A DNA stretch of 64,000 nucleotides from Octopus vulgaris (GCA_951406725.2 OX597825.1:69564001-69628000); one strand, 5' to 3'. Shown: positions 10,668-63,934, counted from the first letter of the stretch. The notes: a model not told the origin generated them from the letters alone. Program-made: numbers and translations.

Positions 10668-10884
10668 TCAATATGTGACAGTATGTGTATCGTTGGCGAT
10701 TTTCTTTCTCCGTCTTCCCTTCCTTGAACCTTTCCTTTTCCTATGTTTCTGACGAAGAGCTCCGCTCGAAACGTTAACTCCTCCTTCTTTCTTTCCTTTT
10801 CTGAGCGTCCAATAACACTATACTTGTTCCACGTCCTCACGTTGTTGCGTTTTCTCTTTGTGTTTTCATGTTTGGATTAACTTT
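10668..10884 (+). mobile_element. Short non-coding PLE pLTR-like insert in (TA)n carrying a minimal hammerhead
   Basis: About 215 bp pyrimidine-rich insert bounded by (TA)n on both sides; contains the HHR at 10745-10778. Confidence 0.65.
10745..10778 (+). ncRNA. Minimal type I hammerhead ribozyme motif
   Basis: gttt CTGACGA a GAGC tcc GCTC GAAA cg TT aac: canonical core, 4-bp helix II, palindromic ACGT helix III, weak helix I. Confidence 0.7.
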
Positions 10885-11502
10885 ATATATATATATATAT
10901 ATATATATATATATATATATATATATATATATATATGTATGTATATATGTATGTATATATATATATATATATATATATATATATATATATATATATATAT
11001 ATATGTATATATATATAAGTTGATATTGTAAATAGTATACTTTAAAAATCTCTTTCATGTCGAGTACGTACATTCAGGGCGGCAGGGCTGTTAGGGTGGC
11101 GATGTGAACCCTAGTGTTTCTTGATCCCTTCAACTTAACAGAATCTGAGCGAGAGATTGACGGAGGGAGAGAGTGAGAAAACGGGATAGAGAGAAAGTGA
11201 TGGAGTGGAAAGGAGAGACGGGGAAGTGAGGTAGGAATTAACCTTGTACCTGACTGCTACTTTAATATCGATCTCGTTGTCCAAAATATAAAATATCCCC
11301 CGACGAGATTTGAACTCGGCGCAAAAACACATTAAAACCGAACACCGCTTGGTTATCAACAGGATTACGTAACTGCTGTACTAATTCGTAGCAACTAATA
11401 TATGATTACACTTCTATGTTGCACCGTATAGCATTGATAGGTTGCCTGCAGTCGATCCCCACCTGTGTTACAGGTCTTATTCTCTTTTGTCTTATTCTCA
11501 AT

Positions 11503-11816
11503 GTGGAGGCGCAATGGCCTAATGGTTAGGGCAGCAGACTCGCGGTCGTAGGATCGCGGTTTCGATTCCCAGACCGGGCGTTGTGAGTGTTTATTGAGCG
11601 AAAATACCTAAAGCTCCACGAGGCTCCGGCAGGGGGTGGTGGCGATCCCTGCTGTACTCTTTCCCCACAACTTTCTCTCACTCTTTTTTTCTATTGGCCT
11701 GCTCGCTTAGCCAGCGGGGTTGGCGTCACTTGAAGGCTAAAACAATGCGAAACGCATTGTGACCAGCGATGTGTAACAACATCTGATGGCCTGGTCGGTC
11801 ACGGTGATCACGGTGA
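11503..11816 (+). mobile_element. tRNA-derived SINE family B1, full length with TSD
   Basis: A-box TGGCCTAATGG, B-box GTTTCGATTCC, (CACGGTGAT)n tail, 11-bp TSD TTATTCTCAAT (11492-11502 and 11817-11827). Confidence 0.9.
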
Positions 11817-12376
11817 TTATTCTCAATAAGAAGAAACCCCTCATTACTACAACTTTACACATGGAGATAGTTCATAAATTCTCCCTCTAACGTAGCGCAT
11901 ACGCCACTCTCTTTCTATCAATCTGTGTTCCATTCCTTCTGCACACATATATATGTGGTTACAAAAATTCATTTTGCAACTTTGTAATTTCGTCTTTCAT
12001 CTCTCTGAATGAGAACTTTGGAAAGTATCGTCTGCAACAGCTTCCATTCGACTATAGACCCACAGGTGAAATTCGATTGTCGGAAATCTCGTTGAAGAAT
12101 AGATTCTGTTTTGTCTGATGGCAATTTATCATTCTGTTAAACACACCCGCCGCTTCAATACTTTTGCGGAGTCCATATCGTCGTAAGTGTTTAAATCAGA
12201 TCTTTGTAGTTCGATCTACTAGAAACAGCGGCTTGAAACAAGGACTGAACCCAAGAAACAAGGATCGAAACCAAATCATGCTATTGCAAAGTGACATTTT
12301 CGGTCACATAGCCATGTCTGATTTAATATTCCCTAAATATAGCTTCCGGTCATATATCCCACCACAACTCCCTGTC

Positions 12377-12582
12377 CATTCTTCAGGGCACAGTCGAAGG
12401 AGGCTGAAAGAGGGGCAGGCAGAGAGAATCCTGGTTTGGTAATATCAAGGACTACATACGTCACGATACAGCGAACCTGAAAGGCATGGCATAGCAGACA
12501 CCAGTGACAACGGCTAACAATGAAAGCATTTAGAGGGGCGCTCCAACGACTGGCTGTATCAATTAAGGGATCTATATGATGA
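12377..12582 (+). mobile_element. 3' end fragment of an RTE-clade LINE
   Basis: Translates ILQGTVEGG*KRGRQRESWFGNIKDY, like the RTE C-terminal GxRxRGRxRxxW motif. Confidence 0.65.
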
Positions 12583-13257
12583 AGTATAGCTTACTTTCTA
12601 CATTGGTTAAATAATAACAATATACCATGTTCTTGGTGCTGTAGTAAATTAGTTATAATAATTGTTTAACAAAGAAGCGATGGATTAAGGGAATTTTCTA
12701 AAATTCCAAACTTATAGGGGTGGAGATTAAAATAATTTGCGGTATTCAGATCCAGACCCTTCACATTTTGTGTTCAAATCTCGCTCAAGTGGAGTTTGTC
12801 TTTCACACTTTTGCAGAAGATGAACTAATGTACTAGTAAAATAATGTATTAGTGCGAATGGCCCCCTTCAACATTTTCTATCAAACTTGTTTTCCAATCC
12901 AATACATTTACACGGTATTATTCATAGCTTTTTTTTCTTTCGAGATCCACTGTTCCTAAACAGAATTATTTCAAGTTCTCTCGAAGATTCTAAATTCTTA
13001 TGACATCAACAAATCAAGAAGTAGAAGCGATATAATCAATACCCCAACCAGACAAACAAAAAATTAACGGGAAATGTACGAGGTCTTGTGTTTATGTTGT
13101 CAATATTTGTTGAGGGTATTCCACCGAAGACGACTTTGTCATTCATCCTTTAGGGGTTCAGAAAATAAGTACCAGTGGAGCACTGAGTTCGATTTTAATC
13201 GCCGAACCGAAATTGCAGGCCTTGTGCCAAAATTTGAAATCACTATTTCTTGAGAGG

Positions 13258-13480
13258 GAAGGCAGTGAGCTGAGAGAATCTTTAGAACGACAGGTAAAAT
13301 AATTAGCGGTATTTCAACCTTCCTTACGTTCTACGTTCAAATTCTGTGGAGGTCGGCTTTGGCTTTCATCCTTTCGGTGTTGATAAAAAAAGTACATGCT
13401 GAACAACGGGGTAGATGTAATCGACTTAACACGTATCCCCGAAATTACTGGCCTTGTGTCAAAATTTGAAACCAGTATTT
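13258..13480 (+). mobile_element. Old SINE family C copy
   Basis: aaggcagtgagctga...gttcaaattc...ctttcatcctttcgg...ggccttgtg homology; further degenerate copies near 4855, 12720 and 13125. Confidence 0.7.
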
Positions 13481-61936: not shown

Positions 61937-62092
61937 GTGGAGGTACATAGCCTAGTGGTTAAAGCAGTGGACTCACGGTCGAGAGATTGCGGGTTCGAAT
62001 CTCAGACCAGGCGATGTGTGTTTTATGAGTGAAATATCTAGGCTCCACGCGGCAGAAGTTAATGGCGAAACTTCTGCTGACTATTTCGTCAA
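61937..62092 (+). mobile_element. 5' half of SINE family B2
   Basis: Matches 25242-25400; ends at (TA)n. Confidence 0.8.
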
Positions 62093-62154
62093 ATATATAT
62101 ATATATATATATATATATATATATATATATATATATATATATATATATATATAT

Positions 62155-62882
62155 TGTTGCTCACCTTCTTCCTCTTGCAGCCCTTCTTTGCTGAGTCCTC
62201 TACCTCCTCGACCGCCTTCGTTCCCTCTTCTACAGAGGTCTCATCCAACTGCTCCAGGACCTTACTTTGTTCCTGGGGACAGTTTGTTTTTATATGGCCA
62301 GGCTCCAGGCACCAATGAGAACTGGGTGGGGCGACCTTCAAGAATCACAGGATACCTAGAACCGGCCATTTTCAAAAATATCCGGAAATACCAGATTCTT
62401 GGCTGGATGTGTTCACAGGGTCAAAACCGCTTTTGTCCCCACTCAATCAGCCGCAGGGAAAATTTTTACGTTGAGGAGCTTGGCTCTGCTGCCACCCGGA
62501 CCCCGGCGGATAGTGTCTTCAATCCACTCGGGTTCTATTCCGGGTGGCAAACCACAGACCCAAGTCCTTGTCAACTCATTCCCACAATACATGGGAAGAA
62601 ACAATATTTCCCCGCCCTCTAAGGGTTGACCCGCAAAATTGCGAGTCTCCTCAGGGGCGTCAAATAGCAACCACACCGTCGCATACTTGACACCCTTGGA
62701 AATAAATTTTATAGTTGGCATATACTTCGCCAACTCTGATTCTATATCGATTTTTCTGAAGAGGGAGATGGTGTCGAGCGACTTGAGGTCCTCAACACCA
62801 CAGGCCTCTTTTCCAAATCCTTCAACCACTCCTTGGGTGGGACAATTTCCCACTCCAAAATGGTGTCCTTTTTCTTCGCCAT
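62155..62882 (-). pseudogene. Frameshifted gag-like ORF1 of an L1/Tx1-type LINE with a CCHC knuckle
   Basis: MAKKKDTILEWEIVPP..., KIDIESELAKY..FDAPEE..LFLPMYCG..RTWVCGLPPGIEPEW, GRP../HWCLEPGHIKTNCP in shifting frames. Confidence 0.7.
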
Positions 62883-63545
62883 GTTTTTTGTAATAAAAAG
62901 TTCAACAGAAGGTCCAAACAGTTCAAGAGAAAGAGTTGAAAAAAGAATGAAGTAAAAAGAAAGAAAACAGTTCAAGAAAAATTCCAAAAAAGAGTCACAA
63001 CAAAAAAGAAAGGAAAAAAAGAAAAGAATTCAAGAAAAAATGAAGTCCCCAAAAAGAGAGAAGAAGGGAAAAAACAGTTCAACAGTTCAAAAAACACAGC
63101 AAGCACAAGTCTTTCGGCCACTAGGTAATCCAGGCCTCCAACTCGAAACTGCAACACAGCAACTGGAACAGAGATTCCACAAAATTTGGGGAAGAAGTTC
63201 AACTATTTTTGGAGGCGAGATACGCCCCCAAAACAACAATTCTCACGATTACTTCAGAAAAACTATTCACTTAAAGTGAACAAATTGCTTCCACAAATTT
63301 CACAAAAAATTGGTGAAGAAGTTCAACTGTTTTTGGAGGCAAGATGCGCCCCCAAAACAGCAATTCTCTCAATTAAGTGAGAAAAACTATTCACTTAAAG
63401 TGAAAGAATTTTCTCCAACTGTAGGCAGACCAGAGTTCAGAATCCAGTGAGGATTTCTTGTTTGTACAAACAGTAATTACAGCAAGCAACAAACCTCAAC
63501 TGGACCCCAAAAAACAAAAGTTTTACCTTACAGCTGAACTTTTTC
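62883..63545 (-). mobile_element. 5' UTR of the L1/Tx1-type LINE with an internal ~120-bp tandem repeat
   Basis: About 63175-63280 repeated at 63298-63404; directly upstream of the ATG at 62882. Confidence 0.55.
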
Positions 63546-63792
63546 AATCAATATTTCGCCAGCTGAACACCAGCGTGGTTACTTCTTTCAGCGCTAAGGA
63601 AAACACGGACATGCACAGTGGGAAGCAAGCTTCTTACCGTACAGCCACTCCCGCGTCCATATTGCTCATGTGTATAAAAGTTGACACACACACACACACA
63701 CACACACACACACATATATACATATATGTATATATACATATATATATATATATATATATATATATATATATATATATATATATATGTGTGTG

Positions 63793-63934
63793 TTGGTATC
63801 TTTCTGTTGAAGAGCGTAGTCTCGAAACGTAAAAGACTTGTTTTATTTATATTCCTGAGCGCCATACTAATACAATTGTTTGTTTGTATTCCACCTGCCT
63901 TCGTCTTTTGTTTATTTTCATAAAGCTTCCCGTT
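63793..63934 (+). mobile_element. Short pLTR-like insert between (TG)/(TA) tracts with hammerhead-like motif at 63799-63836
   Basis: TCTTT CTGTTGA a GAG cgtagt CTC GAAA cg TA AAAGA; same family as 43367-43537. Confidence 0.65.

Follow-up and report, generated by a model that had tools for sequence, protein, structure and literature searches.

The 64,000-nucleotide stretch of Octopus vulgaris DNA analyzed here (GCA_951406725.2 OX597825.1:69564001-69628000; "the window" denotes this whole stretch, and positions are counted from its first letter) harbors a coding Penelope-like element (PLE) and a number of short non-coding inserts, which carry hammerhead ribozyme motifs and are bounded by (TA)n tracts. 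A reading made from the sequence alone (hereafter the sequence-only reading) had described these inserts as a retrozyme-like non-autonomous PLE system. We distinguish insert families A to D, a foldback and a further degenerate motif, which lie around the PLE as follows:

49112–49524, + strand: family C insert, one of many copies of a highly structured non-coding repeat, which is found head-to-tail as well; candidate retrozyme
49304–49401, + strand: type I hammerhead of family C with a helix I of 5 bp and a perfect core at 49309–49315
49114–49129, − strand: 16-nt inverted copy of 49135–49150, forming a 5′ hairpin
49494–49515, + strand: 3′ hairpin of family C, with an A-U to G-C stem change in one contig
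33700–36054, − strand: open frame of the PLE with reverse transcriptase (RT), C-terminal GIY-YIG nuclease and Neptune/Nematis-type linker, 784 aa from stop to stop (from Pfam, relatives and alignment)
35991–36608, − strand: what is left of an upstream frame, which overlaps the RT frame in −1 phase and is cut off 5′ by the inverted arm
32876–33484, − strand: sense 3′ end of the PLE (pseudo-long terminal repeat, pLTR) with a U3-A8 hammerhead (core at 32992) and a tail of about 20 nt into (TA)19
36609–37196, + strand: inverted 5′-truncated copy of the PLE 3′ end with a hammerhead core at 37101, ending in (TA)n
10667–10883, + strand: family A insert with a perfect core at 10749, an extra A, a 4-bp helix II, an ACGU helix III and a weak helix I
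40131–40342, − strand: family D insert with a perfect core at 40258, an extra G, a 4-bp helix II and an AUGU helix III
43366–43534, + strand: family B insert with the core CUAUCGA at 43425, two mismatches and a 5′ arm of about 60 nt
63794–63933, + strand: family B insert with the core CUGUUGA at 63804 and a 5′ arm of only about 10 nt
28846–29158, no strand assigned: foldback of two arms of about 140 nt, centred on 29017–29021, with a tail of about 30 nt on the left arm only
31280–31358, + strand: degenerate motif absent from the list of the sequence-only reading, with a perfect core at 31289, a broken helix II and (TA)n 72 nt downstream

Hammerhead motifs were searched with a minimal-hammerhead descriptor modelled on Cervera 2014, which contains no TA condition; it was written post hoc, when the motifs had already been seen, and its statistics are accordingly somewhat optimistic. 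At a penalty of 0, ≤1 and ≤2 the descriptor gave 4, 6 and 10 matches, compared to 0.01, 0.18 and 1.24 per window in 100 shuffled windows used as control. The ten matches include all five insert motifs named by the sequence-only reading as well as both pLTR motifs of the PLE. Hammerhead motifs do exist in this window, and their quality is uneven. Both a perfect core and helix I are present in 49309 and 40258, while 10749 combines a perfect core with a weak helix I of only two in-register pairs. The two family B cores both carry a U at position 6 (A6U), and 63804 shows a helix II mismatch in addition; a U at this position should cripple cleavage. At E ≤ 10, no hammerhead family appeared among the 150 of 229 weak Rfam matches listed, and those listed were microsatellite-driven.

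Several shared traits that had been proposed for the inserts were recovered. The extra purine after the core, said to be frequent, occurs in 5/5 named inserts and in 0/2 PLE arms. Helix III, described as palindromic or near-palindromic, reads ACGT/ACGU in 10749, 43425 and 63804, AUGU in 40258 and ACCGGU in the PLE, and it is a 12-nt palindrome in 49309. The division into at least four sequence families also held: the two family B inserts are the only pair to align beyond the motif (88% over 49 nt), the alignment of 10749 with 43425 is restricted to the motif (85% over 33 nt), and no family aligns to the window's own pLTR. By contrast, position 29021, listed as a degenerate hammerhead, is not matched by the descriptor and proved to be the centre of a 98%-identical foldback of 146 nt. 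The additional motif at 31289 was likewise missed by the descriptor and has no TA on its 5′ side.

The association with TA tracts is pronounced. Downstream of 7/10 descriptor matches a (TA)≥6 tract lies within 250 nt, compared to 13.8% of background positions (binomial p = 8e-5, or 4e-4 once the two PLE arms are counted as one), which bears out the expected enrichment next to (TA)n within this window. In line with the claimed inserts of 140–410 bp, six non-coding segments of 140–413 nt have tracts with (TA)≥6 on both sides; they are located at 10667–10883 (217 nt), 28846–29158 (313 nt), 40131–40340 (210 nt), 43353–43534 (182 nt), 49112–49524 (413 nt) and 63794–63933 (140 nt). Counting 29021, hammerheads are found in 6/15 short TA-bounded segments. 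Since TA also occurs 5′ of the inserts, which a 3′ tail cannot explain, insertion into a pre-existing tract is the likely cause. The suggested density of one ribozyme insert per 10 kb is correct for this window, to which its scope is limited.

The PLE at 32876–37196 is the window's sole PLE-type coding match (10 query proteins). Its open frame matches PF00078 (E = 3.5e-8) and PF01541 (E = 3.8e-4, just under the cut-off of this family), and the protein has 501 relatives at E ≤ 1e-20. With RT followed by a C-terminal GIY-YIG nuclease in one frame, a pLTR hammerhead near the 3′ end, an inverted 5′ copy and a one-sided tail, the element has the organization of an endonuclease-positive (EN+) PLE. 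The linker between RT and nuclease contains the motif C650-x4-C655-x2-C658, whose three cysteines are invariant in 24 sequences; this is the CX2-5CxxC linker of Neptune, which is also present in Nematis. The element therefore fits a Neptune-type PLE, an assignment taken from the linker motif only, which leaves Neptune and Nematis unseparated. The inverted arms span 588 nt, both end in (TA)n and both carry a hammerhead with a U3-A8 core and an ACCGGU helix III; as they differ at only one of 431 unique positions, the element is young. The data support the proposed link of the hammerheads to PLEs, and insertion into (TA)n fits this element. Close to the start of the RT frame, a U UUU UUA heptamer at 36024–36030 (− strand) lies in the phase of the upstream frame and within its overlap with the −1 RT frame. 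Since the RT frame has no Met near the expected start, it is likely made by frameshifting, and the heptamer points to a likely programmed −1 frameshift. About 0.9 of the words of the PLE are present in sequencing runs labelled RNA by guess, from which no claim of expression follows.

Family C differs from the other inserts in several respects. Its hammerhead has a long helix II (span of about 63 nt), flanked on either side by one additional A, and a 12-nt palindromic helix III at 49384–49395, with a cut predicted after C49396. Copies were obtained as contigs from four of 24 sequencing runs (X19, X18, X1 and X4), two marked DNA and two marked RNA by guess; summed contig depth in these data is not a copy number. 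The four runs delivered 546, 66, 22 and 5 contigs, whose varying identities show that copies of the repeat are numerous and diverged. Contigs of X19, X18 and X1 cover the sequence from 49117 to the 3′ end, with roughly flat cover in X18. Positions 49102–49116 are covered by no contig, and the X1 contigs carry other letters before 49129; the 5′ hairpin of the window copy is likely a local inversion private to this insertion, reminiscent of a PLE scar.

The same contigs show how the units are arranged. A joint leading from 49531 back to 49129 is present in X18 and in X1, each time in a single contig, and record 25 of X4 runs through 49402–49522, 80 other nucleotides and 49129–49151 into a TA run. 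According to this X4 record alone, the unit measures about 475 nt and has no room for an open reading frame (ORF). The TA end at 49151 adjoins the start of the inversion in the window copy and may mark a preferred priming site. These joints give family C the head-to-tail arrangement of a retrozyme, and it further has the non-coding unit of a few hundred nucleotides, the type I hammerhead and the low GC content of such elements. The copy in the window is a lone monomer, and no array with two complete hammerheads occurs among the contigs, which are too short to span the two or more consecutive units, each with its complete hammerhead, that a 2026 preprint takes as criterion for a retrozyme (10.64898/2026.07.22.740005).

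Sequence variation among the copies respects the predicted hammerhead. In helix III, the pair 49387/49392 changes from U-A to A-U, with 60k of 108k and 85k of 126k of the X19 depth at the two positions and both changes in one X4 contig, and a further paired change at 49386/49393 is carried by single contigs of X1 and X4. Paired changes also occur at 49318/49378 in helix II and in the 3′ hairpin. In the core, the listed difference rows contain changes only at N7; one loose end in X4 suggests U4C. The RNA of the whole unit folds with a z-score of −5.17, with 0/100 shuffles as stable, and still reaches −2.8 without the hammerhead region. For the monomer, the hammerhead fold lies 2.1 kcal/mol above the minimum, and the self-duplex of helix III amounts to −17.9 kcal/mol. 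Pattern scans for family C gave 17 and 5 matches, of which two were covered by blastn of the insert over the 23–24-nt pattern region only, and contained no family member. Altogether, family C is likely a retrozyme without long terminal repeats (non-LTR) and with a unit of about 475 nt, which would travel as a non-autonomous passenger of a PLE.

The remaining inserts resemble PLE ends instead. The distance from the core to the 3′ TA tract is 89 nt in the PLE's own arm, compared with 135 nt for 10749, 129 nt for 40258, 114 nt for 43425, 130 nt for 63804, 139 nt for the foldback and 72 nt for 31289. Families A, B and D thus carry a minimal type I hammerhead at a short, PLE-like distance from the 3′ end; the motif of the foldback is no such hammerhead by the descriptor, and the foldback's tail is one-sided as in the window PLE. 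The 5′ arms of these segments and of 31289 vary from about 4 to about 90 nt. Whether 5′ ends are discrete could be compared in family B, where the two copies differ, with about 60 nt ahead of the core in one and about 10 nt in the other; A and D are represented by one copy each. The units of A, B and D are not highly self-paired (z = −0.55, +0.15, +1.03 and −0.29), and these may be partial copies; including the foldback arm and the pLTR, none of these sequences folds better than shuffles (z from −0.8 to +1.0). Head-to-tail copies of A, B and D are absent from the window. Given that A, B, D and the foldback do not match the window pLTR, their parents, if any, lie elsewhere. From this geometry, the inserts at 10749, 40258, 43425 and 63804, the foldback and 31289 likely stem from several coding PLE families, whose 3′ ends they represent in 5′-truncated or inverted form. 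As a separate observation, the 5′ end of family D at 40332–40342 matches the first letters of a Tc1-like terminal repeat at 10/11 positions, by chance or as a composite insertion.

For the question of a coding parent, the same motif type was followed in other datasets. The A/B motif matches the pLTR hammerhead of a Neptune element of Acropora digitifera except for one helix II letter, published as G and here A (Cervera 2014, PMC4209133). Scans recovered at least 120 metagenome loci, with 97 of 120 being low-GC, 0 matches in viral contigs and 27 matches in prokaryote genomes; family A aligns to 36 of the metagenome loci over the hammerhead alone. Two of the prokaryote matches were looked at closely: L132 is a host-derived PLE end, and L128 was rejected as a chance match inside a coding region. 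On the same strand as the motif, a PLE match (residues 473–731) ends 162 nt upstream at L007, and the PLE coding end lies about 320 nt upstream at L132. A whole PLE at L153 consists of a hammerhead, the ORF and a second hammerhead, followed 63 nt on by (TA)21. Searched alone, the window PLE protein found no relative in prokaryote genomes, while a PLE alignment yielded 44 loci there (L148–L191); these and L132, all in bacteria-labelled assemblies, are likely host contamination. The sequence-only reading had asked for a coding parent of each insert: none aligns to the window pLTR, and the look-alike motif is linked to Neptune in another animal.

The 5′ extents of the metagenome copies were anchored on L007 and L132; all-against-all extents were not used, since inverted arms common to the loci produce alignments of their own. 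Motif and GC content kept 89/120 loci; after removal of 11 duplicates, L007, one unaligned locus and one locus censored by the contig end, 75 were counted. Among these unique copies, 58/75 start within 25 nt of the motif and 6/75 extend at least 200 nt upstream. A second piece, nearly always inverted and adjacent, is carried by 31/52 loci with long flanks, and a second exact same-strand motif by 0/52. In all foldbacks read (14/14: L001, L013, L020, L026, L028, L029, L040, L043, L052, L059, L066, L067, L078 and L079), helix II has A-U in one arm and G-U in the other, with G-U as the published consensus. Synthesis templated by the hairpin may correct this letter as the element integrates; the A arm is the one that the pattern itself selected.

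Taken together, we consider it fairly probable that the window contains two kinds of TA-bounded insert, i.e. truncated or inverted PLE 3′ ends on the one hand and the family C retrozyme on the other, and that both were put into (TA)n by Neptune-type machinery. The stubs would arise when a Neptune-type nuclease nicks a (TA)n tract and RT starts about 70–140 nt downstream of the pLTR hammerhead; an early halt of synthesis, or a new start on the opposite strand, would then leave an end that is short or folded back. The hammerhead would be passive here and retained merely through its closeness to the 3′ end. For family C, tandem loci would be transcribed, and the hammerhead would cut the multimer either alone, with a helix III of 4 bp, or as a dimer through a 12-bp duplex of the covarying palindrome. 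The cut units would perhaps be ligated to circles, and a PLE protein acting in trans as helper would insert into (TA)n a copy of some portion of a multimer or circle. A possible but doubtful extension of this model is that the retrozyme of about 475 nt is still active and its hammerhead of a new build, with circular RNA as a product and a Neptune nuclease that places dispersed monomers in (TA)n. The earlier notion of a retrozyme-like non-autonomous system thus survives for family C with its head-to-tail unit, but not for A, B, D and the foldback with their geometry of truncated or inverted PLE 3′ ends; as a general claim, it relabels known PLE debris.

How strongly do the data favor two kinds of insert over a single one? 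All inserts including family C could be plain 5′-truncated pLTRs of coding PLEs, with the junctions of family C arising from partial-tandem or nested insertions. The 5′ micro-inversion and the TA end, which family C shares with the other inserts, and the lower X19 depth in its 5′ half would agree with this, and covariation would also be expected in the pLTR hammerhead of a coding PLE (Cervera 2014, PMC4209133). However, the tandem of a coding PLE would continue from the 3′ end into the 5′ untranslated region and the ORF, whereas in one record of family C some 80 nt separate the 3′ end from a renewed 5′ part of the unit itself, with the joint in two more runs; moreover, its whole unit folds far better than shuffles, unlike the window pLTR and the other inserts. 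We therefore regard this explanation as unlikely. Quite unlikely, in our view, is the opposite extreme, according to which every family is a discrete non-autonomous retrozyme spread via circular or multimeric RNA. It would account for family C, for the TA on both sides of all inserts and for the lack of a parent within the window for any family, and retrozyme families do include dispersed monomers with sequences resembling pLTRs (10.64898/2026.07.22.740005). It is at odds with the differing 5′ ends and the shared A6U core change of the family B copies, with the missing global structure of A, B and D, and with the same motif type elsewhere, which is a Neptune 3′ end with a second same-strand copy at 0/52 loci; in addition, minimal hammerheads are assigned to PLEs and canonical ones to retrozymes (Cervera 2020, PMC7229834).

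A DNA-level origin of family C would also reproduce part of the picture. Here, the repeat would be a satellite or foldback sequence amplified as DNA, its hammerhead an inherited relic, and the other inserts PLE debris. The tandem junctions indeed sit in DNA-type contigs, the RNA labels of the runs being guesses, the unit is AT-rich and full of hairpins, and unequal crossover has been allowed for as a way in which tandem repeats derived from pLTRs multiply locally (10.64898/2026.07.22.740005). Yet such a repeat would hardly show paired changes in helices II and III with a core kept except at N7 in the listed rows; the TA ends of its dispersed copies fall at differing points of the unit, and the window copy has a 5′ inversion, both as expected from target-primed insertion, which makes this scenario very unlikely. 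Finally, motifs and TA context could coincide by chance in such AT-rich, microsatellite-rich animal DNA, with its 62 merged dinucleotide tracts in 64 kb and 9/15 short TA-bounded segments that lack a motif, and an initial stricter scan was only weakly above shuffles. This full type I scan, which required helix I and an intact G5-A6, gave 11 matches compared to 7.1 in shuffles at a score ≥1 and 3 compared to 0.5 at ≥5, and it missed 10749, 43425 and 63804. Considering four perfect matches against 0.01 expected, a TA association with p of about 1e-4 and the covariation of family C, the probability of pure coincidence is negligible.

Several points nevertheless weigh against two kinds of insert placed by Neptune-type machinery. 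In family C, the 3′-to-5′ junction is represented by one contig in each of three runs, with the letters in between known in one, and the deepest run X19, whose listed pieces are shorter than 110 nt, contains none; the roughly twofold lower X19 depth in the 5′ half implies that truncated copies exist too. Concerning covariation, the helix II change at 49318/49378 from U-A to C-G (3.9k and 4.1k in X19) is matched by depth and not phased, and palindromes can also stay symmetrical at the DNA level. The family C hammerhead is non-canonical, without the short loops 1 and 2 of canonical retrozymes. As for the stubs, no coding parent of A, B, D and the foldback is present in the window, so that we infer their parentage from geometry and a family of another animal. 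The pile-up of 58/75 starts at the motif is biased, since the search pattern took a minority helix II variant tied to truncation at the motif, and (TA)≥5 lies within 600 nt of 0/120 loci, which are uninformative on TA targeting here. Hammerhead cleavage was dispensable for PLE insertion in vitro (Frangieh 2024, PMC11167929), and cleavage was seen in 1/9 dimers of Xenopus retrozymes (Li, Clavereau and Pollet 2026, 10.64898/2026.07.22.740005).

Most components of this picture have precedents. Dispersed single minimal hammerheads in animals have been ascribed to truncated PLEs (Cervera and de la Pena 2014, PMC4209133), and the extra nucleotide after the core, the palindromic helix III, the U3-A8 core, dispersed single copies and opposite-strand pairs are described there as well. 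The Acropora digitifera Neptune motif of that study has the same layout as 10749, 43425 and 63804. In comparison to its minimal hammerheads, family B has the U at position 6, and family C has a far longer helix II and the 12-nt palindrome; the one supplement file searched contains no octopus or cephalopod entry. The window PLE resembles described Neptune PLEs (PMC8557442; PMC11167929) in its RT and C-terminal GIY-YIG nuclease, CX2-5CxxC linker, inverted 5′ copy, 5′ truncation, one-sided tail and microsatellite or AT-rich target. Craig 2021 (PMC8557442) deals with non-autonomous PLEs and with the truncation, inversion, tails and (TA)n bias of PLEs, presents the foldback with one-sided tail as the PLE norm, hypothetically ties the CX2-5CxxC linker of Neptune and Nematis to microsatellite bias and, in a figure legend, reports a frameshift after ORF1 in some PLEs.

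Non-LTR retrozymes were defined by Cervera and de la Pena 2020 (PMC7229834), and a preprint derives them from pLTRs (Li, Clavereau and Pollet 2026, bioRxiv 10.64898/2026.07.22.740005). Like metazoan members of this group, family C is non-coding, low in GC, highly self-paired and present in many copies, with a type I hammerhead, head-to-tail units, dispersed monomers and co-existing autonomous PLEs. Its length of about 475 nt is slightly above the range of 150–450 nt (PMC7229834) and inside that of 51–972 nt (10.64898/2026.07.22.740005). Unlike known retrozymes, its hammerhead does without short loops 1 and 2, and it shows (TA)n insertion with a 5′ inversion; mussel retrozymes were accepted without most loop 1–loop 2 contacts, those of corals being canonical, and ligation to circles was shown for coral, mussel and axolotl retrozymes (Cervera 2020, PMC7229834). 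The mobilization of animal retrozymes by PLEs is itself a proposal resting on co-occurrence and pLTR similarity (10.64898/2026.07.22.740005; PMC7229834). Similarities also extend to non-autonomous Chlamys PLEs such as MRC1, which are short non-coding passengers with head-to-tail insertions from a clade with microsatellite bias (PMC8557442). However, most Chlamys PLEs are without canonical hammerheads, and the 3′ sequence of non-autonomous ones is generally also that of some autonomous family (PMC8557442), whereas family C has no known autonomous partner with a common 3′ sequence.

The general pattern, i.e. thousands of dispersed minimal hammerheads in animal genomes stemming from truncated PLEs, is already known. 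Family C, in turn, is a credible new retrozyme-like family. The listings of a literature search, with Repbase, Dfam and some supplements outside its scope, showed no report of a cephalopod hammerhead or of a microsatellite-targeted retrozyme. If the doubtful active form of family C outlined above is true, no retrozyme before it would have been tied to a microsatellite target and, by this, to a helper element with a name; it would probably also be the first one from a cephalopod. By sharing the (TA)n target and the 5′-inversion signature with a young Neptune-type element, it would provide an integration-site argument for mobilization, and together with the window PLE it would form a ready pair for a trans-mobilization assay. 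Its long covarying helix III palindrome would further allow a clean test of monomer versus dimer cleavage.

Other elements of the window also abut TA tracts. A decayed Tc1/mariner element at 42098–43302 lies in a (TA)n tract; it has kept inverted terminal repeats as well as part of a transposase, which matches Sleeping Beauty (E = 6.6e-9). The CUGACGA words at 42139 and 43261 belong to its inverted repeats and were rejected as hammerheads. A second abundant SINE-type (short interspersed element) family (5950–7400, 16100, 28770, 48312–48498 and 60179–60337) likewise abuts (TA)n at its end, which shows that hammerhead families are not alone in forming TA-bounded inserts. Another short TA-bounded segment contains an imperfect foldback at 16609–16800 that lacks a hammerhead motif and is possibly another inverted PLE end. 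At 19889–20008, two CUGAUGA words with no GAAA downstream and a pyrimidine-rich run ending in (TA)41 possibly represent a decayed element end. The abundant repeat family D17 (18615–61135), with internal tandem units of 184 nt, is presumably a SINE and is the source of several weak descriptor matches, e.g. 24113. Broken frames at 62081–62901 (− strand) have no Pfam match at E 0.01; they contain a CCHC-like stretch, adjoin (TA)30 and, as we assume, resemble ORF1 of a long interspersed element (LINE). These frames are accompanied by repeated 5′ pieces at 61324–61526 and 63067–63269.

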